Notes under the pieces: generated by a model
Told to the model about the DNA's origin: nothing
What the model saw: only the letters and a program-made list of their open reading frames with translations
Databases searched by the model: none
Assembly: GCA_965279525.1 (NCBI GenBank)
Contig: CBDIIB010000005.1
Location: 992,001-1,056,000 of the forward strand
Direction of reading: 5' to 3'
Origin: Tagaea sp.
GTDB lineage: Bacteria > Pseudomonadota > Alphaproteobacteria > CACIAM-22H2
DNA length: 64,000 nt
Program-made: the position numbers and the translations under genes
In this document: one piece after another, positions 5,715 to 54,340 of the stretch
Position numbering within the stretch: position 1 is the stretch's first letter
Layout of the letters: each line of letters begins with the position of its first letter

Positions 5715-7751
5715 TCAGTCGTCCGCCGCGACCGCGCGTTCGCCCGGTACCCACAGCGGCAGCCGGCACGTGACGGTCGTGCCTTCGCCGGGCACGGACA
5801 CGAGATCGATCGTGCCGCCGTGCAGCTCGACGATGCGCTTGACCAGCGACAGGCCGAGCCCCGCCCCCATGCGCCGCGCGTCGGGGGCCGCACCGCGCTC
5901 GAATTCCTTGAACACGCGCGCCTGGTCGGCGATCGGGATGCCAACGCCATTGTCGGCGACCTCGAGCGAGACCATGCGCTCGTCCGCATGCGCCGAAAGC
6001 CGCACCACCCCGCCGGGCGGCGTGAACTTGAGCGCGTTGGAGACGAGATTGCACATCGCCTGCTTCAGGCGCCGCTCGTCGCCACGCAAGCGCGGAACCC
6101 GGGCGCGCACCACGTCGAGCTTCAGTTCGCGCTCGCGCGCGAGATCGCCCATGATCTGGGCGGCGTCGGCCAGCATCTCGACCGGATCGACGGCGGCCAG
6201 TTCCAGCGTCATGCGGCCCGCGTCGATCGAGGCGAGATCGAGGATGTCGTTGATGATCGCCAGCAGACGTTCCGACGCGGTCAGGATGTCGGCACAGTAT
6301 TCGCCCTGGCGCTTGTTGAGATCGCCGAAATACTGCTTCGACAGCAGCTCGGCGAACCCGATGATCGTGTTGAGCGGCGTGCGCAGCTCGTAGGACACGG
6401 TCGAAATGAACTCGGATTTGAGCCGGTCGGCGGCTTCCAGCGCTTCGGCGCGCTCGCGCAGCGCCTGCTCGACACGCACCTTGTCGGTCACGTCCACGTA
6501 GGAAAGCTGCGTGGCGCCGTCGGGCAGCGGAACGAGCGCGTAGTCGAGCACGCGCCCGTCGGTGCGCTCGATGCGCGCATTGGCGGCATCGCGCGAGGTC
6601 AGGTTCTCGACGAGGCGCTCCTTCAGCGACGACCAGTCGATGTCGGCAGGATAGAAGGCGCGCATGCGCTCGACGACGTCGGCGATATGCGGCTCGGCGA
6701 TCAGGGCGGCGTCGGGGATGTCCCAGATGCGCGCGAAAGCCGGATTGTGGAGCTTGAGCCGCCCGTCCGAACCGAACACCGCCACGCCTTCGTAGAGATT
6801 GTCGAGCGTGGCCCGCTGGACCGCGATCAGCGTGTTGTACGAGCGCTCGAGCACGAGACGGTCGGTCACGTCCTCGAACGCGAACAGCAGCCCGCCCAGC
6901 GGGTGTGGCATACAGCGCTCGCGCAGCGTCGTGCCGTCGGGCAGGTACATCAGCTCGTCGAACGATTCGAAAATCGTGTCGAACAGCTTGAGCCGCTGGC
7001 GCTTGAACATGCGGAAGTCGGCGACCTCCGGCAGGCGCCGGCGCTCGCGCAGGTTCTCGAGGATTTCGCCGTATTCCGGCTCACCGGACAGCCACGCCTC
7101 GTCGGCGCGCCACAGGCGCGCATAGGCGCTGTTGAAGTATTTGAGCCGCTTGTCGGCGCCGAAGATGCCGATGGCGACGGGCATCGTCTCGAGGACCGCG
7201 CCCTGTGCGGCGATATGGCGGGCAAGCTCGATGCCCGCATCTTCCCGCTCTGTCTGGTCGACGGCCATGCCGACCGTGCCGCCGTCGGGCAATGGCGCTT
7301 CGACGAACTCGTAGAGGCGCCGGGCACCCGACACGACGATGTGCTCGGCCTCGCTCTGTGCCGTGCGCGCGGCAAGCGCAAGGCGCGCCAGTGCTGCAAG
7401 CCGGCGCGACAGGGCGGGCCCGCCGATGCCGTCGCTGCCGGCCAGCAGTTTCTCGCGCTCGACGTCGGCCGCCAGCGCATAGGCCGAATTGCACCACACG
7501 AGCCGCTGCTCGCCGTCGCGCCGCCACAGCGGGAGGGGAAGCGCGTCGAGGGCCGCCTCGATCCGTCTTGCCGTGTCTTCGGCCGCTTCGCGCTCGGCGC
7601 GCAGAAGATTGGTGCGCACGGAAAGCTCGTTGCGGGAAATCTCGGCCGCACGGGCACGTGCGGTCTCGGCGCGCAGACGCTGCAGCAGGAAAAGGCATCC
7701 CGCCCCGCCCAGCCCCAGCCCCGTCGCCAGTCCCGTCAGAAGTTCGTTCAC
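5715..7751 (-). CDS. divL: PAS-domain pseudo-histidine kinase DivL-like
   Basis: N-terminal TM segment, several PAS folds, H-box VSYELRTPL with Tyr in place of His, HATPase boxes; sits downstream of ahcY. Confidence 0.85.
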   Translation of the reverse strand: MNELLTGLATGLGLGGAGCLFLLQRLRAETARARAAEISRNELSVRTNLLRAEREAAEDTARRIEAALDALPLPLWRRDGEQRLVWCNSAYALAADVEREKLLAGSDGIGGPALSRRLAALARLALAARTAQSEAEHIVVSGARRLYEFVEAPLPDGGTVGMAVDQTEREDAGIELARHIAAQGAVLETMPVAIGIFGADKRLKYFNSAYARLWRADEAWLSGEPEYGEILENLRERRRLPEVADFRMFKRQRLKLFDTIFESFDELMYLPDGTTLRERCMPHPLGGLLFAFEDVTDRLVLERSYNTLIAVQRATLDNLYEGVAVFGSDGRLKLHNPAFARIWDIPDAALIAEPHIADVVERMRAFYPADIDWSSLKERLVENLTSRDAANARIERTDGRVLDYALVPLPDGATQLSYVDVTDKVRVEQALRERAEALEAADRLKSEFISTVSYELRTPLNTIIGFAELLSKQYFGDLNKRQGEYCADILTASERLLAIINDILDLASIDAGRMTLELAAVDPVEMLADAAQIMGDLARERELKLDVVRARVPRLRGDERRLKQAMCNLVSNALKFTPPGGVVRLSAHADERMVSLEVADNGVGIPIADQARVFKEFERGAAPDARRMGAGLGLSLVKRIVELHGGTIDLVSVPGEGTTVTCRLPLWVPGERAVAADD

Positions 7752-11977: not shown

Positions 11978-12892
11978 TCATGCGAAGCTCCGGTCGAGAT
12001 CGCGGTGGACGAGGTTGACGCGTCGCCCGCCCTGGGTGAGGCGCTCGGCGAGGCGTTCGGCGACGAAGACCGAGCGATGCCGCCCGCCGGTGCAGCCGAC
12101 GGCGACGGTGAGATAGGATTTCCCTTCGGCCTCGAAGCGCGGCAGCAGCGCCACGATCATGTCGCTGAGGCCGTCGAAGAATGCGTGGAAGCCCGGGTCG
12201 CGTTCGACGAAGCGCGCCACTTCGGCATCCTTGCCGGTCAGCGGCTTGAGGTCGGGCCGGTAGTGCGGATTCGACAGGAAGCGGACGTCGAACACGAGAT
12301 CCGCTTCGCGCGGCAGCCCGTTGCGGTAGGCGAAACTTATGATCGACAGCGCCAGGCCCGCCGGCGCGTCGAGCGCGAAATCGTCCTGCACGAGGCGCTT
12401 GAGCTGGTTGGCCGAAAGCGCTGCCGTGTCGATGACCCGGTCGGCGCGCGCGCGCAACGGCTCGAGCAGGCGCCGTTCGGCCTTGATGCCGTCGACCAGC
12501 GGCCGATCAGTCGCCAGCGGATGGCGCCGGCGCGTTTCGGTGTATCGGCGCGCGAGCGTCTCGTCGTCGCAGTCGAGATAGAGCAGGCGTACGTCGAGGC
12601 CCTGTTCGCCCAGGAGCCGGTCGATCGCGGCCACCAGCGCGTCGACGCCGAAATCGCGCGTGCGCGTATCGACACCGATGGCGACCGGGCGGGCGTGGGT
12701 CGAATCTGTCTCGGAAAGGACGAGGCTCGCGAGCAGCGTAAGGGGCAGGTTGTCGACCGCTTCGTAGCCGGCATCCTCGAGAGCCCGCATGGCGGTCGAG
12801 CGGCCGGCACCGGAAAGGCCGGTCACGAGCGCGATGCGCCGGCGCGGCGTCAGGGCGGTCTGCGGTGTCGCGACGGGCAAGGGAACGATCAT
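11978..12892 (-). CDS. rapZ: RNase adapter RapZ (P-loop ATPase)
   Basis: TGLSGAGRS, AVDNLP, ETRRRHPL, FDVRFLSNP, GCTGGRHRSV. Confidence 0.95.
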   Translation of the reverse strand: MIVPLPVATPQTALTPRRRIALVTGLSGAGRSTAMRALEDAGYEAVDNLPLTLLASLVLSETDSTHARPVAIGVDTRTRDFGVDALVAAIDRLLGEQGLDVRLLYLDCDDETLARRYTETRRRHPLATDRPLVDGIKAERRLLEPLRARADRVIDTAALSANQLKRLVQDDFALDAPAGLALSIISFAYRNGLPREADLVFDVRFLSNPHYRPDLKPLTGKDAEVARFVERDPGFHAFFDGLSDMIVALLPRFEAEGKSYLTVAVGCTGGRHRSVFVAERLAERLTQGGRRVNLVHRDLDRSFA

Positions 12893-12915
12893 GATGCGGC
12901 CAAGCCCCGAGCCTG

Positions 12916-13380
12916 TCAGTGCGCGAACAGCTTGCCCTGTCGGGCAAGGCCGGCCGCGATGCGCAGTTTGGCGGCCGCCGACGCGGCCCAGGGGTCGAGG
13001 GCAAGTCGCGGCAGCTTGACGCCGAGCAGGTCGCGGGTCGACGCCTCGGGCAGCCGGTCGATGGCCGTACGATCCGTCAGGTCGACGACCAGCCCCAGCT
13101 TCGCGCTGTCCGCGCAGGCCCCTTCAACGCCGTCGAGATGCACGATTCCGATGCCTCTTACTTCCAACAGACCGGCAATATTGCCGGGAGCGGTTGCCCA
13201 GATCGCGTTGCCGCGCCGTTCGAGATCGACCCTGTCATCGGCCACCAGCCGAGCCCCGCCATCGACGAGCCGCAGCGCGAGGTCCGATTTTCCGCTGCCC
13301 GACGGTCCGCACAATAAAACGCCAATCTCGGCAAGAACGACACAGGTGCCATGAACCTGAAGAGTGAGCGGGTCCGTCAC
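12916..13380 (-). CDS. hprK: HPr kinase/phosphorylase, short alphaproteobacterial C-terminal-only form
   Basis: HGTCV, GPSGSGKSDLALRL, LVADDRV, LLEVRGIGI. Confidence 0.92.
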   Translation of the reverse strand: MTDPLTLQVHGTCVVLAEIGVLLCGPSGSGKSDLALRLVDGGARLVADDRVDLERRGNAIWATAPGNIAGLLEVRGIGIVHLDGVEGACADSAKLGLVVDLTDRTAIDRLPEASTRDLLGVKLPRLALDPWAASAAAKLRIAAGLARQGKLFAH

Positions 13381-13490: not shown

Positions 13491-15158
13491 TTACGCAGCC
13501 GGAAGCCGGATCCGGAATCGGGCGCCACGGATTTCCCCATTGGAATCATGGCGATTTTCGGCCTCGATCACGCCGCCGTGGGCTTCGACGATCTGACGGG
13601 AGATCGACAGGCCCAGACCGGAGTGGGTTCCGAATTTTTCGGCCGCCGGGCGCTCGGAATAGAACCTTTCGAAGATCGATTCGAGCTTGTCGGCCGGTAT
13701 GCCGGGGCCGTCGTCGTCGATTGTCACGGTGACAAACTCGCCCGCCCGGCCCACGGCGATCCGGACCTCGGCCCCGGGCGGGCTGAAAGACTGCGCATTC
13801 GCGATCACATTGCGGAAGACCTGGCCGAGCCGGTCGGCGATGCCCATCACGGCGAACGGGCCGGCGCCGGCCCGGGTCAGGACGGGCTTCGCCTGGTCGG
13901 GCTTGGCGACGGCAGAAAGCGCGTCGACCAGCCCGCCGAGCACTTCGGAAAGATCGACGGGCTCGGCATTGGTGCGGCTGAGTTCGGCATCCAGACGCGA
14001 GGCTCCAGCGATGTCGGTGATCAGCCGGTCGAGCCTTGCGACGTCGTCGAGCACGATGGCCATCAGCTTCTCGCGGACGGCAAGGTCGGGAACCCGTGCG
14101 GCCGTCTCGACGGCACTCTTGAGCGACGTCAGCGGGTTCTTGAGCTCGTGCGCGACGTCGGCCGCGAACCGGTCGATGGCGTCAAGGCGGCGCGACAGCG
14201 CGTCGGTCATCTCCCGCAGGGCCGCGGACAGGTCGCCGATTTCATCGCCGCGCGCCGACAGGTCGGGAATGGCGCCGGCGAGTGCCGCCCCCGCCCCCAG
14301 CGTGCCGCCGATCCGCGCGCGTGTCCCGCCGGTGCGCACCCGGTCGGCGGCCCGCGCGAGCCGGCGGATCGGTCGCGCGATCGTGCCGGCAAGATAGAGC
14401 GACAACAGGACGGTCAGCAGAAGCGTGACGCCCGCAACCCGCAGGATGTCGCGCCGCACGGTGCGCAGCGCGACCTCGATGTTGCGCCCGTCGCTCGACA
14501 GCATCAGGGCGCCCAGCACCTGCTTGAAGCGCTGGACCGGAACGGCGACCGACAGCAGGACCTGGCCGCTTGCGGTCCGCCGCACCGCCCGTCCACCGTC
14601 GCCGACGAGGGCCGCGATCGCTTCCTCGTAGTCGAGGGCGACCGGATCGCGCCGCTCGCGATAGAGCGGCAGGTTGAGATTGCCGGCAAGCCCGCCGCCG
14701 AAAAAGTCCGACAGCGCGTCGACCGTGCGGCCGGGCAGCGGCGCCGCGGGCTCGGGCGGCGGCAGGATCTCGACTTCGACCGCGAGGCTGCCCTGCCCCA
14801 ACACACGGGTGTCGGCCAGCAGCATCCCGGTGAAGTCGAACAGGCGGGCGCGCACGCGCGTCGGCTCGACGAGACGGCGCAGGATCTGGCGCGCGACGTC
14901 GGGAGCAAGTCGGTCGTCGCGCTCCTCGTCGTCCGGATCGGCGACCGAGACGGCCGCCTCGCCCAGTGCCGCCGCGATGATCTGGCTTTGGGTGGACAGG
15001 GCCTGCAGCTCGGACTCGATCAGGCCGCGGCGGAAATCGTCGAGATAGAGCACGCCCGCCGCCAGCAGAAGCAGCGGCAGCATGTTCAAGAACAGGATGC
15101 GCCGGGTGAGCGGCGAGAAACTTCGGCGGAAACCGAACCGGACGGCCATGGCTGGCAT
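13491..15158 (-). CDS. chvG: Sensor histidine kinase ChvG/ExoS/BvrS
   Basis: SPLTRRILFLN TM1, stimulus-sensing periplasmic domain, HAMP, DVAHELKNPLTSL, FERFYSERP, HSGLGLSIS; upstream of hprK. Start uncertain (15149 or 15158). Confidence 0.92.
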   Translation of the reverse strand: MPAMAVRFGFRRSFSPLTRRILFLNMLPLLLLAAGVLYLDDFRRGLIESELQALSTQSQIIAAALGEAAVSVADPDDEERDDRLAPDVARQILRRLVEPTRVRARLFDFTGMLLADTRVLGQGSLAVEVEILPPPEPAAPLPGRTVDALSDFFGGGLAGNLNLPLYRERRDPVALDYEEAIAALVGDGGRAVRRTASGQVLLSVAVPVQRFKQVLGALMLSSDGRNIEVALRTVRRDILRVAGVTLLLTVLLSLYLAGTIARPIRRLARAADRVRTGGTRARIGGTLGAGAALAGAIPDLSARGDEIGDLSAALREMTDALSRRLDAIDRFAADVAHELKNPLTSLKSAVETAARVPDLAVREKLMAIVLDDVARLDRLITDIAGASRLDAELSRTNAEPVDLSEVLGGLVDALSAVAKPDQAKPVLTRAGAGPFAVMGIADRLGQVFRNVIANAQSFSPPGAEVRIAVGRAGEFVTVTIDDDGPGIPADKLESIFERFYSERPAAEKFGTHSGLGLSISRQIVEAHGGVIEAENRHDSNGEIRGARFRIRLPAA

Positions 15159-15235
15159 TTTAGCGAAGGCCGTGGCGAGATTGCGGCGCGAATTCCAGGC
15201 TCCGGGAATACTCACCCGGCATAAGATTGTATACC

Positions 15236-15267
15236 TTGACGCTTTTCTGATTGTTCTTTAGACGTTC
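15236..15267 (+). promoter_or_regulatory. Sigma70-type promoter overlapped by an alphaproteobacterial LexA (SOS) box
   Basis: TTGACG (15236-15241), 17 bp spacer, TAGACG (15259-15264); GTTC-tttagac-GTTC at 15253-15267 matches GTTC-N7-GTTC exactly. Confidence 0.72.
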
Positions 15268-15293
15268 TCTCCACCTTCGGATGTGGAGAGAAC
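15264..15293 (+). promoter_or_regulatory. Inverted repeat occluding the Shine-Dalgarno of the 15295 ORF
   Basis: GTTCTCTCCAC-cttcggat-GTGGAGAGAAC, perfect 11-bp stem; the 3' arm contains GGAGAG immediately before ATG 15295. Confidence 0.65.
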
Positions 15294-15294
15294 C

Positions 15295-16848
15295 ATGCTT
15301 CAGTCGCCTGAGAATCTTCTGACCCCTTACGCACCCCGCCGCCGCCCGTCGACCCCGGGCGCCGGCGCCGGTGGCTGGTTCGACCTCGACGACTGGGTCG
15401 GCCCCGGCCATCCGAGCACGCGCCCGGACATCGCCAAGCTCGAAGCGATCCTCGCCAACAGCGGGGATTTTCCGATGGAGCGCTTCCAGGGCCCGACCGG
15501 CTACTGGGGCGGCGCGCTCGATCAGGGGATCCGCAGCTACCAGAAGCGCAACGGCCTGAAGGTCGACGGCGCATTGCGCCCCGGCGGCCCGACGATCAGC
15601 CACATGCGCGATTCGTTCGCCAACCTGTTCGACGGCCACGAGCCGCCGACGGTCGAGGACATCGACGCGCATCAAAACGGCGTCGGCGACGACGATCCCG
15701 GGACCATCGCGTGGCGCAAGCCCGCCGTCGACCTGTCGCAGATCCCCGGGCTGCCGGAGATCGACCAGGAAGCCGACGCGTCGAACGTCCGCCTCGTGCG
15801 CGCGATGCTGCGCACCGGCGACATCGAGGGCTACGCGCCGCTGATGCGCGACGCCATCGACCAGGGCGGCAAGAACGCGCTCGCCGAAGTCCGCGACCTC
15901 ACGCTGAAGCTCGATGACGCCTCGCCGGGCCTCGGCGGCCGGTTCGCCGGCTACATCTACGACGGAATGACGAAGGCCCAGCGCGACAGGCTTCAGATCA
16001 AGATGCAGGGCGGCCAGCCGCTCGGCACGGTCCAGGTGGCTCAGGTCGGCGAGATTGTTGACGCCGGAATACTGGGATTGCTCGGAATCGGCACGTTGGC
16101 CAGCGTCATGAATGCGGCAGAAGGCACGCGCAAAGCATTGAGTCCGGGCGAAGTCCCGGGCTCACCGCCGCCACTCGTCCCGCCCGACGATCCGACGCGT
16201 ACGCGGCCGGGGTACGAGGAGATCCCGACGGCCATCGCCGGGCCGACGCATACCGGCCATCCAGCGGAAACGCCGAAGGCTTCGGATGGTATCGAGACGT
16301 TCCCGGCGAAGCCGGGAGAGCGCCGCAAGCAGATCGTCGACGGAATCGTCGCTGAACTGTTCCCGAATATCCTCGAGGCCCGCTACGACGACAAGCGGGG
16401 AACCAAGTGGACGGTGAAAGGAACCAATATCGCCATCCAAGAGATCAGAGATGCGATCGATGATTCCGACATTCCGGAAGATATCGTTCATACCGGCGGC
16501 GGATCCATCGAAGGTGAAGAAGAAGTACACCAGAAGGAAGAGACGATCTGGCACGATGACGGTACGTTCAATCGGCCGGATACGTCCCACCGCGCCGAGG
16601 GCATCAAAGACGACAAGGCATCCATCCAATTCAACACGACAAGTCGAAAAGCTGACGGATCGCTGACGAAGCGCGAGCGGGCAGCTCTCGCGCGTCTGAA
16701 GGGAAAGCTTGGCGACGACGTCATGGGTGACTTGCCGAAGATGCTTGAAGGGCAAAGCGAAGAAGAGTATCGCGCGCTCGTACGGCCAATGATCCGCGAT
16801 GCGGTAAGCAAATTGCGTGACCGGTTGCGCAAAATCCGGGAAGAATGA
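15295..16848 (+). CDS. Peptidoglycan-binding-domain protein with variable, putative toxin (nuclease-like) C-terminus
   Basis: PGBD-like motif TGYWGGALDQGIRSYQKRNGLKVDGALRPGGPT; then a hydrophobic helix, Pro-rich linker and a C-terminal domain with visibly lower GC3. Confidence 0.75.
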   Translation: MLQSPENLLTPYAPRRRPSTPGAGAGGWFDLDDWVGPGHPSTRPDIAKLEAILANSGDFPMERFQGPTGYWGGALDQGIRSYQKRNGLKVDGALRPGGPTISHMRDSFANLFDGHEPPTVEDIDAHQNGVGDDDPGTIAWRKPAVDLSQIPGLPEIDQEADASNVRLVRAMLRTGDIEGYAPLMRDAIDQGGKNALAEVRDLTLKLDDASPGLGGRFAGYIYDGMTKAQRDRLQIKMQGGQPLGTVQVAQVGEIVDAGILGLLGIGTLASVMNAAEGTRKALSPGEVPGSPPPLVPPDDPTRTRPGYEEIPTAIAGPTHTGHPAETPKASDGIETFPAKPGERRKQIVDGIVAELFPNILEARYDDKRGTKWTVKGTNIAIQEIRDAIDDSDIPEDIVHTGGGSIEGEEEVHQKEETIWHDDGTFNRPDTSHRAEGIKDDKASIQFNTTSRKADGSLTKRERAALARLKGKLGDDVMGDLPKMLEGQSEEEYRALVRPMIRDAVSKLRDRLRKIREE

Positions 16849-16852
16849 AGCG

Positions 16853-17626
16853 ATGGATTTCGATGAAATGCGCCGTGAAGGCCCGACTCCAGCGGTCATT
16901 CCGAATGCCGGCCGGCGACAGGAAGTCTACTGGATGATCGACGACGCGCAGCGATATGCCGTCCTGCTGCGCAAGGCATTCCCGAAAATCATGTTCTATG
17001 AAACCTTCGAGAAAACAGATGATCTAGAAGAGAAGCCTACAATCCGGATTCTCGATCGTCTTGACGATCCAACGATCCGCAATCACGTAGGTGCGTTTGT
17101 CCCATATGATGGCTGGATACCCAATCTGGTTCGTATCAAAGGTCCAACGCAGAAATTGCGATGGACCTGGTCACGCTATCTGTCGCCGCGCCTACGGTTT
17201 CCTGTCTGGTACGGCCCGAATGCACGACCGGCGGAATGGCGCACGGAACCCGATGCGCCACGCGTCGAGACATGGACAGGCACCAGCATCCTGACTTCCT
17301 ACCGTCGCGAACTGCCGGACGAAGGCCGCATTTCGGACAGGTTTGTCGCGCTGGCACGAAAGCTCTGCATCCGGACCGTGCCGGTCCTATGGAAGTCGAG
17401 CCGCGAATTTCTCGAGGGTGACGGCAAGGTGGCGCGCGGCGGACTCTTGGTCGGTGACGGCTGGACGACACCGGCCGCCGCAGCGTGGTGTCTTGCCGCG
17501 CCCGGTCGGGTGCTTGGGTTCAGTGCTTCTGCCTCCGGAGGCGCGCACGGTTGCCTGCCTGTCGAACTCGTCCCCGACTCATGGTGGGGCGACATTCCGA
17601 AGCCCAAATGGGCCCAGCGCCCTTAG
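16853..17626 (+). CDS. Hypothetical protein, candidate cognate immunity protein
   Basis: ATG 4 bp after the upstream stop; lower GC like the upstream C-terminus; Trp/aromatic-rich; no recognised family. Confidence 0.65.
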   Translation: MDFDEMRREGPTPAVIPNAGRRQEVYWMIDDAQRYAVLLRKAFPKIMFYETFEKTDDLEEKPTIRILDRLDDPTIRNHVGAFVPYDGWIPNLVRIKGPTQKLRWTWSRYLSPRLRFPVWYGPNARPAEWRTEPDAPRVETWTGTSILTSYRRELPDEGRISDRFVALARKLCIRTVPVLWKSSREFLEGDGKVARGGLLVGDGWTTPAAAAWCLAAPGRVLGFSASASGGAHGCLPVELVPDSWWGDIPKPKWAQRP

Positions 17627-17647
17627 GCGCCGATGCGGCCCCCGCCC

Positions 17648-18406
17648 CTACTTCTCCTTGTAACGATACCCCAGGCCGTAGAGCGTCTCGATCTGCGTGA
17701 AATCCGCGTCGACGGCCTTGAACTTCTTGCGCAGGCGCTTGACGTGGCTGTCGATCGTGCGGTCGTCGACGTAGATCGACTCGCCGTAGGCAAGGTCCAT
17801 CAGCTGGTCGCGGCTCTTGACGAGGCCCGGACGCTGGGCGAGCGCTTTCAGCAGCATGAACTCGGTGACGGTCAGCGTCACCGGCTGGCCCTTCCACGTG
17901 CACAAATGCCGTTCGGGATCGAGGGCAAGCTCGCCGCGCACCATCGGCGGCTCGGCGGTCGCCGAGGGCGCTTCGCCGGAATCCGCCGCGCGGTTCGCGG
18001 CCTGGCGGCGCAGCAGGGCGCGGATGCGCTCGACCAGCAGGCGCTGCGAGAAGGGCTTGGTGATGTAGTCGTCCGCACCCAGGCGCAGGCCCATCACCTC
18101 GTCCACCTCGTCGTCCTTCGACGTGAGGAAGATCACCGGCAGGCGCGAATGCGCGCGGATGCGCTCGAGCAGCTGCATGCCGTCCATGCGCGGCATCTTG
18201 ATGTCGAGGATCGCGAGGTCCGGCGGCTCGGCCAGCAACACTTTCAGCGCCTCGGTGCCGTCGGTCCAGCTGCGCACCTTGAAGCCTTCGGCTTCAAGGG
18301 CGACCGAAACGGAGGCGAGGATGTTGCGGTCGTCGTCGACGAGGGCGATGGTCGCTTGCGGAGCCGGGCTGGGGGTCATCGTTTCGATCTTGAGCGAGAG
18401 GGCCAT
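17648..18406 (-). CDS. chvI: OmpR-family response regulator ChvI/BvrR
   Basis: [69 protein letters not shown]. Start 18379 or 18406. Confidence 0.95.
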
Positions 18407-18564
18407 GGCGGATCGGGTCCTCGGAATGTCCGGAATTGCGGGCAGTGGGTGAGGCCTACAATCTGGTGCCCGAATGCGGCCCAAATTGGGCGGCGTTTTG
18501 CCCGTTTCCGGACGCGCCGAAGCATCCGATAATCGATGCGCGCACTATAGGGAGAATCGCACGC

Positions 18565-52654: not shown

Positions 52655-54340
52655 CTAGAAGCGCATCGACACGTCCCAGTAGATGCGCAGCGGCCGCTCG
52701 CCCTCGGTGAGCGAGGGCACGCGGGTCAGCGGCTGGGCGAGCTCCAGCCCCGACGACAGCCAGTTGTCGTGCGCCACCTTGATGCCCACGCCAGCCGACG
52801 CGAGCGTCTGCGTGAACGACGAACCGCTGCCGCGCCGGTTCCACGCCCAGCCATAGTCGTAGAAGACGTAAGGCTGCCAGCCGGCCGTGGCGAGATCGCC
52901 GTAGCGGATGTCGAGCGCCGAGCCGGCACCGTTGACACCCGTGATCTCCGACGGATCGTAGCCGCGCCCGAAGCGCCCGCCGCCAAGCGAGAACTCCTCG
53001 CCCGAATAGAGCCGGTTGCGTGTCGCCTGGCCGGCCAGCGTCCACTGGGCGGTGAAGTCGTCGCTCAGGAGCTGGATGCGCCGGATCTCGCCGGTGAACT
53101 TGGTGAATTGCGGCTGCGCGTCGGAGCGGCTGTGCTGCAGGTCGTTCGGGTTCTCGGTGCCCAGCCCGATGATGCCCCGGACGATGCCCGCCGACAGCAC
53201 CGTGGCACCCTGCATGAAGCCCAGATGCGAGAATGTCAGCCGCGCGTCGGTCGCGAGGTAGCGGTCGCGCGTCAGGGGATCGCCGCGCACGAACGTCGCG
53301 GTGCGCGAGACGTAGGCCGACGTGTCGAACACGAGATTGACGCGCCGCGAGCGGATGACCGGATAGGAAAGGCGCGGCCCCAGGCGCCAGGCGGTCGTGT
53401 GGACCTGCAGCGCCTTCAGCGTGTGGCCGGGCCAGCCCCACGAATAGGTGGTGTCCCAGCCGAACACGAGCCCGTCGTCGCCGATCGGCTGGGTGTAGCG
53501 GAACACGCCCTGGCGCAGTTCGCGGTTGCTGTGCCGGGACGGGACCGTCGAGCCGCCGATCGTCAGCTGCTCGTTCAGGCCGAGCAGGCCGTTGAACGAC
53601 GTTTCGGCATAGACGGTGACCGGCCCCTGGAACTTCGACGCGCGGTTCGACACCGTCACGCTCGACTGCACCGTCTTCTCCTCGATCCGCACGAGGAGGT
53701 TGGACGAACCCGGCTCCTTGCCGGGGGCAAGCGTGCCTGCGGCACTGACGCCCGCAAGATCGCCGGCAAGCAGCAGCCCGCGTTCGATGGCCGCGAGGTT
53801 GGCGGGCCGTCCTTCGAAGGCGCGGCGCAGATAGGCGCGGATGCGCGCGCGCGCGGAATCCGAACCGCCGTCGAACTCGATCTCGGAAAGAAAGCCCTCT
53901 ACGACCTGGATGCGGAACGTGCCGTCGCCCACGCGCTGCGGCGGCACGAAGGCACGCGAAAGCACATAGCCGTCGGCCCGGTAGCGGTTCTCGATCGCCT
54001 CGGCCACCGCCGTGATCGCCGACAGGCCGAGCGTCTGGCCGATCAGCGGCTGGGTGAAGGCGGAAAGCTGGGCCGGGCTGTAGACGGTCGAGCCCTCGAC
54101 CGTGATTCGCGAAATGGGAAAGCGCAATTCGTCGACCGCCCGCCGGTCGGGTGCCCGCGGCTGGGCCGGGATCGACAGTTCGAGCTCGGCTTCGGGAACC
54201 GGCAGGCCGCGGCCGGGAATCCGTGGCTCGGCGGCCGGCGGCAGCACGAGCTGGGCCTGGGCATGGGTCGGCGCGACCGCGAGAAGCAGCAGCAAAAAGG
54301 CACGGATTACCAGTCGGGCGGGTCGTTTCGAGTCGGCCAT
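52655..54340 (-). CDS. ShlB/FhaC/HecB (TpsB/Omp85) outer-membrane beta-barrel
   Basis: Signal peptide, POTRA motif YRADGYVLSRAFVPPQ...IQVVEG, EEFSLGG..FGRGY loop, FYDYG, terminal Phe. Confidence 0.9.
   Translation of the reverse strand: MADSKRPARLVIRAFLLLLLAVAPTHAQAQLVLPPAAEPRIPGRGLPVPEAELELSIPAQPRAPDRRAVDELRFPISRITVEGSTVYSPAQLSAFTQPLIGQTLGLSAITAVAEAIENRYRADGYVLSRAFVPPQRVGDGTFRIQVVEGFLSEIEFDGGSDSARARIRAYLRRAFEGRPANLAAIERGLLLAGDLAGVSAAGTLAPGKEPGSSNLLVRIEEKTVQSSVTVSNRASKFQGPVTVYAETSFNGLLGLNEQLTIGGSTVPSRHSNRELRQGVFRYTQPIGDDGLVFGWDTTYSWGWPGHTLKALQVHTTAWRLGPRLSYPVIRSRRVNLVFDTSAYVSRTATFVRGDPLTRDRYLATDARLTFSHLGFMQGATVLSAGIVRGIIGLGTENPNDLQHSRSDAQPQFTKFTGEIRRIQLLSDDFTAQWTLAGQATRNRLYSGEEFSLGGGRFGRGYDPSEITGVNGAGSALDIRYGDLATAGWQPYVFYDYGWAWNRRGSGSSFTQTLASAGVGIKVAHDNWLSSGLELAQPLTRVPSLTEGERPLRIYWDVSMRF

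Follow-up and report, generated by a model that had tools for sequence, protein, structure and literature searches.

What are the two genes that separate a chvG-like sensor kinase gene from a chvI-like response regulator gene in the alphaproteobacterium Tagaea sp., and could their products be a weapon and its antidote? The locus lies on contig CBDIIB010000005.1 of assembly GCA_965279525.1, in a stretch of 64,000 nucleotides (positions 992,001 to 1,056,000 of the forward strand; hereafter the window, whose numbering from position 1 is used below), and consists of a promoter region followed by gene 1 and gene 2, which together we call the cassette. A preliminary description, made from the letters of this DNA, had read the cassette as a colicin-analogous toxin-immunity pair induced by DNA damage through the repressor LexA. 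This reading was supported by every in silico check that had been proposed for it, and we predict with reasonable confidence that gene 1 codes for a polymorphic toxin of bacteriocin-like kind and gene 2 for the immunity protein that matches it. The cassette fits the definition of a polymorphic toxin system, having an N-terminal module shared by proteins with alternative C-terminal domains (tips), a downstream gene that is matched to the tip, and a recombination breakpoint where the tip begins.

A shared N-terminal module with exchangeable tips

Of the 20 other genus genomes, 18 contain homologs of gene 1, with 8 matches at most in any one, and a single weak match was obtained from 29 other genomes of the family-rank group; the family seems to be confined to one group of alphaproteobacteria. 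Common to these proteins, which range from 260 to 660 amino acids (aa), are the N-terminal 250 residues or so, hereafter the N-module. The peptidoglycan-binding domain named in the preliminary description was recovered there by Pfam (Table 1), and PG_binding_1 was matched in 28 of the 34 family members scanned. It is followed by a helical part, for which the structural search program VIA-align gave just generic helical-bundle matches (Z 5-6), and by a linker whose length and sequence vary among 28 homologs. The same description had placed a hydrophobic helix in this protein; what we see by eye is instead a variable Gly/Ala-rich stretch, missing from some homologs. Its statement that a signal peptide is absent agrees with our inspection by eye, in which no hydrophobic signal-like stretch was seen at the N-terminus of gene 1.

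Beyond the N-module the family diversifies, as would be expected of the polymorphic toxins to which the cassette had been likened. Over residues 1-250 the nearest homologs in the database share 83-88% identity with gene 1, a figure that falls to 54-63% over the full length, and some members end in unrelated tips. To type the tips, the last 190 residues of 40 members were clustered (44 unique open reading frames, ORFs, from which 4 shorter than 400 aa were dropped), giving 8 C-terminal types. The nuclease-like tip of the window cassette belongs to type 0, with 20 members; type 1 (5 members) is BPSL0067-like, type 2 (5 members) lysozyme-like by eye, types 4 and 5 (2 members each) glycine-rich or coiled by eye, and type 6 (2 members) an M23 peptidase (PF01551, E 5.5e-12), while types 3 (3 members) and 7 (1 member) bear no family label. 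Matches to known families among the 34 members scanned were BPSL0067 in 6 (NF033857), M23 in 1 and DUF6973 in 1; a Roseospirillum homolog carries DUF6973, and amidase-like tips are present in the family too.

The gene that follows changes with the tip, in accordance with what the preliminary description had anticipated. All 20 nuclease-like tips (type 0) are followed by a homolog of gene 2, which lacks a signal peptide. Behind types 1-3, cell-wall hydrolase tips among them, 12 of the 13 ORFs that come next on the same strand start with a typical signal peptide, as judged from a crude hydrophobicity count and by eye. Colicin-type and type VI toxins follow this pattern: the toxins lack a signal peptide, and their partners are periplasmic for wall-degrading tips and cytoplasmic for nuclease tips. 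The signal-peptide ORFs behind hydrolase tips imply that such toxins reach the periplasm from outside. In several genomes, open frames of about 262 aa match the N-module alone and carry no tip, some of them adjoining a full-length member; these could be adaptors, decoys or truncated copies.

The boundary between module and tip is visible in the nucleotide sequence. The genome has a second cassette (C5:282.5-284.9 kb), which is 82-99% identical to the one in the window from the promoter to about position 16290 and 52-67% identical from there to the end of gene 2. The overall content of G+C and that at third codon positions (GC3) are 0.69 and 0.86 for gene 1 up to 16290, 0.57 and 0.67 for the rest of gene 1, and 0.60 and 0.64 for gene 2, with a window average of 0.68 G+C; the lower G+C content reported earlier for the gene 1 C-terminus and for gene 2 is therefore confirmed. 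In comparisons of the window cassette with its homologs, identity ranges from 56 to 83% for residues 1-255 of gene 1, from 25 to 61% for its last 262 residues, and from 30 to 61% for gene 2. Across all 78 pairs that can be formed from 13 complete loci, the N-module averages 59% identity, the tip 36% and gene 2 41%, and the divergence of the N-module is uncorrelated with that of the tip (Pearson 0.01). In the 7 of these pairs with a tip identity of at least 50%, gene 2 is 53-88% identical.

In its assembled form the toxin gene of the second cassette is broken by three 1-nucleotide insertions (L016:6588, about 6697 and 6863-6865). We considered whether it is a pseudogene and rejected this: in contigs of four public sequencing runs the extra base is missing from two of these sites, and the third is not covered. 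The frameshifts are probably assembly errors, although these contigs could stem from the other copy.

Concerning the position of the cassettes, chvI and chvG had been described as normally adjacent, and this holds for 14 of the 20 chvI loci of the genus; in the other 6 (G000, G031, G040, G041, G044 and G046) a cassette splits the pair. G030 and G047, close relatives with ChvI proteins 97% identical, have an empty slot and carry their cassettes elsewhere. In G041 ChvI is 99% identical to that of the window, yet the tip is 44% and gene 2 is 56% identical. A second slot, past the end of another conserved gene, is common to the second cassette of the genome and to cassettes of G047 and G030. Since the same slots hold differing tips, the cassettes behave as allelic, exchangeable islands of the core genome, and the cassette of the window is not a recent private insertion.

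The two tightly coupled genes of the preliminary description were found as it had given them, on the strand opposite to that of both flanking genes (Table 1). A GGAGAG lies 7-12 nucleotides 5' of the gene 1 ATG, and the gene 2 ATG comes 4 nucleotides past the gene 1 stop codon, and the two genes are probably translationally coupled. According to the ORF list of the window there is no room between chvG and chvI for a further ORF. Gene 2 and chvI, which run towards each other, have their stop codons 21 nucleotides apart, and no hairpin was seen in this gap; repeats bracketing the cassette ends were looked for and none was convincing. The flanking kinase scores 474 bits against the NCBIfam ChvG model, under the model cut-off of 740. 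Downstream of chvG, the ORFs at 11978-13380 (minus strand) resemble by eye HPr-kinase-like and RapZ-like P-loop proteins, and genes of these two kinds are the usual neighbours of chvG in alphaproteobacteria. The cassette cuts chvG off from chvI, the two being adjacent or overlapping in 14 of the 20 genus genomes. Neither a promoter-like site for chvG (15150-15240) nor a terminator after chvI or gene 2 (17626-17648) was found, and chvG may be transcribed by read-through, antisense over the whole cassette.

Table 1. Coordinates of the cassette, its flanking genes and tipless relatives (window numbering unless a genome and contig are given; pLDDT, predicted local distance difference test)
Feature	Position	Strand	Remarks
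chvG-like sensor kinase (flank)	13491..15215	-	best NCBIfam model ChvG
-35-like hexamer TTGACG	15237..15242	+	TTGAC (nearly) invariant in 15 homologous promoters
Candidate LexA box GTTC-N7-GTTC, GTTCTTTAGACGTTC	15253..15267	+	exact match; -10-like TAGACG (15260-15265) in spacer
Inverted repeat/hairpin	15264..15293	+	arms 15264-15274 and 15283-15293; 3' arm holds ribosome-binding site GGAG
Gene 1	15295..16848	+	ORF (ATG to stop), 517 aa; polymorphic toxin candidate, from homologs
PG_binding_1, residues 43-93	15421..15573	+	Pfam PF01471, E 1.3e-6
Helical part of N-module, residues ~150-235	15742..15999	+	AlphaFold pLDDT 81-91 (residues 151-230), 65 (231-240)
Low-confidence linker, residues 239-368	16009..16398	+	Gly/Ala-rich hydrophobic, then Pro-rich; pLDDT <50
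Recombination breakpoint, module versus tip	16290..16380	+	identity drop against second cassette; GC3 from 0.86 to 0.67
C-terminal domain, residues 367-517	16393..16845	+	PD-(D/E)xK nuclease-like fold, modelled
Gene 2	16853..17626	+	ORF (ATG to stop), 257 aa; immunity candidate
chvI-like OmpR-type response regulator (flank)	17648..18484	-	library scans
Tipless N-module frame	G040:C21:396202-396759		
Tipless N-module frame	G047:C1:106630-107196		
Tipless N-module frame	G044:C11:43097-43675		
Tipless N-module frame	G030:C156:5842-6417		
Tipless N-module frame	G046:C1:2160570-2161196		

Predicted control by LexA

The promoter that had been read upstream of gene 1 is present at 15237-15267, with its two hexamers 17 nucleotides apart and overlapped by the exact direct repeat. 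Table 1 of PMC9578287 gives GTTC-N7-GTTC as the SOS box of Caulobacter. To evaluate whether the box is a functional operator, we compared, in an alignment, the promoters of 15 cassettes belonging to several species. In 13 of them GTTC stands unchanged at both half-sites, a recurrence that the preliminary description had asked to be looked for, and the other 2 have one mismatch; GTT is invariant in each half-site and its C is retained in at least 90%, and not one of the 7 spacer nucleotides is invariant. By eye, promoters whose hairpin lacks the complementary GAAC still retain the half-site GTTC. The proteins encoded behind these promoters are just 56-83% identical in their best-conserved part, and this footprint of the half-sites across diverged cassettes is the main support for a functional operator. 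From sequence and conservation, we regard LexA control of the cassette as likely.

In the whole genome, exact boxes number 73 with both orientations counted, which is about the number expected by chance as estimated from base composition. Eight of these pair an AT-rich spacer with a low-GC setting. They precede lexA itself (TIGR00498, above cut-off), an imuA-like gene (NF033429, E 2e-22, below cut-off), a gene for a PA0069-family radical SAM protein, two paralogous small Cys-rich ORFs, one further site and both cassettes, the 15-mer box being identical in the latter two. The recA gene of the genome has GAAC-N7-GTAC in place of the exact repeat; the same variant occurs at -41 to -46 of four family members with other tips (L043, L058, L060 and L076), which suggests that it is a second accepted form of the operator. 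The only other GTTC-N7-GTTC of the window (53862-53876) has a GC-rich spacer and falls, by a crude ORF call, within a long open frame, and we take it to have most likely arisen by chance.

The two paralogous Cys-rich ORFs, of 88 and 100 aa, lie outside the window (L014:110-373 and L015:159-458, at C5:687.8 kb and 1165.4 kb), each behind a TTGAC promoter with an exact GAAC-N7-GAAC box, and the 88-aa ORF is followed by a gene for a 457-aa protein with a Lon-like AAA region. The SOS regulon may include this pair as an additional, unnamed component.

Two other elements of the promoter region deserve mention. A block upstream of the -35 hexamer (ATAAGA-TGTAT; ATAAGATTGTATAC, 15221-15236) is nearly invariant in the 15 promoters and could be an UP-like element or a second operator; its GATTGT repeats directly 5' of the first GTTC half-site. 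The inverted repeat before gene 1, folded as RNA, has a predicted energy of -18.2 kcal/mol (z -2.9). In the promoter alignment 93.8% of its cells are paired, and the 5' arm shifts just to G-U pairs; since the 3' arm is invariant, two-sided covariation is lacking, and the RNA structure is not proven. If transcription starts 6-9 nucleotides past the -10 hexamer, part of the 5' arm would be untranscribed. Candidate roles of the hairpin are translational masking and a protein-binding site; Rfam gave no match on 15100-17750.

The nuclease-like tip and its predicted partner

Gene 1 was modelled with AlphaFold from an alignment of 28 rows, with a mean pLDDT of 61.5. In residues 371-517 the blocks reach pLDDT 74-93 and follow the order alpha-beta-beta-beta-alpha-beta-alpha. 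When residues 367-517 were compared by VIA-align with 48,161 chains, the best match was BpuSI (Z 8.2, root-mean-square deviation 4.0, 122 residues aligned), followed by Bax1 (7.0), the RAP module of FASTKD4 (7.0) and Hjc (6.9); Can2, AbaSI, D212, I-Bth0305I and further restriction-type nucleases come at Z 6-7. Support for a PD-(D/E)xK nuclease-like fold of the modelled tip is moderate, and it is owed to the consistent enrichment of nucleases among these matches. The weak top rows of a Foldseek search against the PDB, which are not significant, are R2 endonuclease, MunI, MGME1 and XisH, and a protein language-model search gave weak leads (0.85) to Tox-REase-2 and Tox-REase-7.

Seven residues are invariant in the 28 homologs (R368, G402, E415, D429, N447, E461 and K482), and the polar set among them, from E415 to K482, is non-canonical for a nuclease of this kind. 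D429 stands before strand 2, in the position of the PD motif; E461 and K482 are placed away from strand 3.

A profile of 19 tips, searched against 1.84 billion proteins, found 175 representatives at E<=1e-3, of which 96 at 1e-10, and in all of the best 150 of these 175 the tip domain is C-terminal. Among the 85 of these that were scanned for domains, each with at least 300 aa, PG_binding_1 is present in 64, Phage_Mu_F in 1 and Pyocin_S in 1; the Phage_Mu_F and Pyocin_S carriers are absent from the two sets of 10 distant homologs that were scanned with Pfam. For 10 of the distant homologs, a cluster look-up yielded hardly any name or taxon. Profiles of gene 1 and gene 2 had no match among the sequences of solved structures at E up to 1.

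Gene 2, which had been described as of unknown family, indeed matches nothing in Pfam, NCBIfam, PADLOC or PHROGs, the PADLOC scan being empty altogether. Its model is confident (pLDDT 90.4); Foldseek found nothing in the PDB at E<=1e-3, VIA-align returned a heterogeneous list (best Z 6.9) from which no fold could be assigned, and the ESM Atlas gave no usable match. When gene 1 residues 335-517 and gene 2 were modelled together, the interface score ipSAE was 0.88, 0.88 and 0.90 in three runs, against 0.01 for the best control. The same mark is attained in 58 of 80 complexes of solved structure and in 2 of 110 mismatched pairs; because our own alignments went into the models, these calibration counts are approximate. 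The three runs share at least 77% of their contacts, and the pLDDT of the partner is at least 88. The predicted interface joins tip residues 404-417, including the invariant E415, to gene 2 residues 17-22 and 147-150, which are the most conserved motifs of gene 2. The modelling supports binding of gene 2 to the C-terminal domain of gene 1.

Alternative explanations and known systems

From these elements a way of working can be proposed. LexA, bound to the box over the -10 region, would keep the cassette off until the DNA is damaged, a step that we infer from sequence and conservation, and RecA-driven cleavage of LexA would then free the promoter. The N-module, composed of a disordered head (with a W/F-F-x-L-x3-VG motif), PG_binding_1 and the helical region, would act as the delivery part, and a flexible linker would connect it to an exchangeable killing domain, nuclease-like in the window member, with cell-wall hydrolases or glycine-rich membrane-type tips carried on the same module in other members. 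By covering the conserved loop at 404-417, gene 2 would make the producer and its kin immune. Release would occur by lysis of a damaged subpopulation, followed by receptor-mediated uptake as with colicins and S-pyocins, for which the N-terminal motif and the peptidoglycan-binding domain would serve. VipB/TssC (PF05943), the sole type VI marker searched, gave no match in any of 21 genus genomes, a set in which 16 have a completeness of 90% or more. The lack of this sheath gene in the genus favours lysis release and receptor uptake; release by lysis, argued from analogy with colicins, is put forward tentatively.

Several observations weigh against a toxin-immunity cassette under LexA control. 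Regarding the operator, the bare pattern is at chance frequency in the window (2 occurrences against 1.9 expected), and since it is enriched neither there nor in the genome, support was sought in its position and conservation. The -10 hexamer is weak; a scan of 15000-17800 for E. coli-type promoters called none. The exact box is missing in four distant members with nuclease tips, and 20 members with other tips have 1 exact box, 4 boxes of the recA type, 5 with another single mismatch, and none in 10; one-mismatch boxes are weak evidence alone. As for the tip, a VIA-align Z near 8 is, by the tool's own statement, often reached by models that have no true match, Foldseek found nothing in the PDB for the gene 1 model at E<=1e-3, strand 3 reads [Q/H/N]-x-N447 where a classical (D/E)xK is expected, and the Pfam Tox-REase families match neither the whole protein nor 10 isolated C-terminal domains at E up to 10. 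Gene 2, at 257 aa, is large for an immunity protein, and its mean identity exceeds that of the tip (41% against 36%). Its divergence follows that of the tip by Pearson (0.72) but not by rank (Spearman 0.04), the Pearson signal being due to the 7 of 78 pairs with high tip identity. Finally, neither the cassette nor one other locus inspected was found to contain a gene for lysis, secretion or a receptor.

Some of the same data might be explained in other ways. The cassette could be an intracellular suicide or toxin-antitoxin module, in which an SOS-induced nuclease-like protein acts on the nucleic acids of its own cell and gene 2 is a titratable inhibitor, as in the likened cases of the SOS-induced endonuclease BapE and the LexA-controlled HigBA of Caulobacter. 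The LexA box, the nuclease-like fold, the tightly bound partner predicted, and the fact that neither signal peptide nor export genes were found would all suit such a module. However, it is hard to see what a peptidoglycan-binding module would do in the cytoplasm, the N-module also carries wall hydrolases followed by signal-peptide ORFs, which points to action from outside, and tip swapping with multi-copy diversity in one genus is typical of competition weapons; we consider an intracellular role improbable. Wall hydrolases bring to mind phage endolysins, and the cassette might be a remnant or derivative of a modular one that brings about SOS-induced autolysis, with spanin-like proteins in the downstream signal-peptide ORFs. 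PHROGs did give weak endolysin matches to gene 1 (to the peptidoglycan-binding domain alone, E 0.006), and M23, lysozyme-like and amidase-like tips without signal peptide fit as well. This origin is nevertheless very improbable: the flanks are core genes with no holin or phage gene nearby, none of 81 pattern-matched stretches of viral contigs was confirmed as an N-module, nuclease-like and glycine-rich tips are not lysins, and the downstream ORFs change with the type of tip in the manner of immunity genes. Nor did the viral contigs, or a search of the genome for a phage-type sheath gene, which found none, lend support to the suggestion of the preliminary description that the toxin might be carried by phage or gene transfer agent particles.

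A toxin need not be a bacteriocin, and delivery by a contact-dependent secretion machine, for example a type VI system, would find a precedent in PG_binding_1 domains N-terminal to toxins at vgrG loci, which a passage of PMC10673891 limits to Gammaproteobacteria. The genus counts for TssC, from a search that left other machines (type I, type IV and others) outside its scope, the missing phage-type sheath gene and the position of the cassettes among core genes make this scarcely credible. The least credible explanation is that the pair is no toxin at all and forms a damage-induced, cell-wall-associated factor that processes nucleic acids, with gene 2 as a partner subunit. The non-canonical catalytic motif would agree with it, and so would a well-conserved gene 2 with a well-folded model of 257 aa, but hydrolase and membrane-type tips, recombination at the tip boundary and the multi-copy, genus-restricted spread would be left unexplained. 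Eight tip types on one conserved N-module, matched downstream genes and recurring LexA boxes support the colicin-analogous polymorphic toxin family proposed at the outset and lead us to prefer it.

DNA-damage-induced protein bacteriocins are textbook biology of enterobacteria and pseudomonads. For an equivalent family in Alphaproteobacteria, we found no description in the main text of open-access full-text papers and preprints. The parts that would be new are the N-module, the tip family and the immunity fold, together with alphaproteobacterial LexA control and the core-genome slots. If the prediction is true, the N-module would be a delivery module of a new kind, open to mapping of its receptor and path of import, and the pair would add a toxin family of nuclease-like type and an immunity fold, both of them new; it would offer a case of natural tip swapping at fixed slots between flanking genes that are 99% identical, and would extend the alphaproteobacterial LexA regulon, at the level of a family, to interbacterial weapons. 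The separation of chvG from chvI, its usual operon partner, raises the question of how chvG is transcribed in strains with the cassette. Going farther, the cassettes might perhaps be a new class, that of chromosomal, LexA-controlled bacteriocins of alphaproteobacteria that do not depend on type VI secretion, in which an endolysin-like peptidoglycan-binding scaffold serves as uptake module for a new PD-(D/E)xK-like killing domain with a new immunity fold, and which sit in core-genome slots, chvG-chvI being one, where transcripts of the cassette and chvI-chvG read-through would meet head-on and possibly couple DNA-damage and envelope-stress signalling; we hold this wider proposal with some reserve.

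Among known systems, the cassette resembles in its working the nuclease colicins (E2, E7, E9) and the S-type pyocins, without being a member of either family by homology. Colicin control by LexA is described in a passage of PMC9578287, and the promoter of the cassette, with its candidate LexA operator, would likewise be inducible by DNA damage. As in these bacteriocins, an N-terminal delivery part precedes a C-terminal killing domain of nuclease type, the immunity gene follows directly (here with predicted binding to the killing domain), and the family spans the same targets: nucleic acid, cell wall and membrane. A Pyocin_S domain occurs in 1 of 85 distant carriers of the tip, and not in gene 1. 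Unlike colicins and pyocins, gene 1 shows no relation to their receptor and translocation domains, Pfam finding PG_binding_1 alone; its tip is PD-(D/E)xK-like, whereas that of the nuclease colicins is HNH; and a lysis gene is missing, the slots are chromosomal and among core genes, and the operator is the direct repeat of alphaproteobacteria.

Polymorphic toxin systems with restriction-endonuclease-fold tips (Tox-REase) were reportedly described by Zhang, Aravind and co-workers in 2012. A conserved N-module, exchangeable tips, a downstream immunity gene and a breakpoint at the tip are shared with them. The cassette differs in lacking a Pfam Tox-REase match, in an N-module that is not one of the known secretion-linked ones, and in LexA control, which is not general among those toxins. 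Type VI effectors with PG_binding_1 have this domain in front of diverse toxin domains as well, but the cassettes belong to a genus without TssC and lie outside secretion loci.

The closest parallels for the other tips are found among cell-wall toxins. Pesticin and colicin M are bacteriocins that target the cell wall and have a periplasmic immunity protein; the members with lysozyme-like, amidase-like and M23 tips resemble them in lacking a signal peptide, and the ORF after lysozyme-like and amidase-like tips has one. This likeness is one of description, and the window member differs in its nuclease-like tip and cytoplasmic-type partner. Modular endolysins of phages of Gram-negative bacteria, such as KZ144, have an N-terminal PG_binding_1 and the catalytic domain last; gene 1 shares this order and the absence of a signal peptide, and is set apart from them by its core-genome site away from phage genes, by the non-lytic tips of its family and by the cognate genes downstream.

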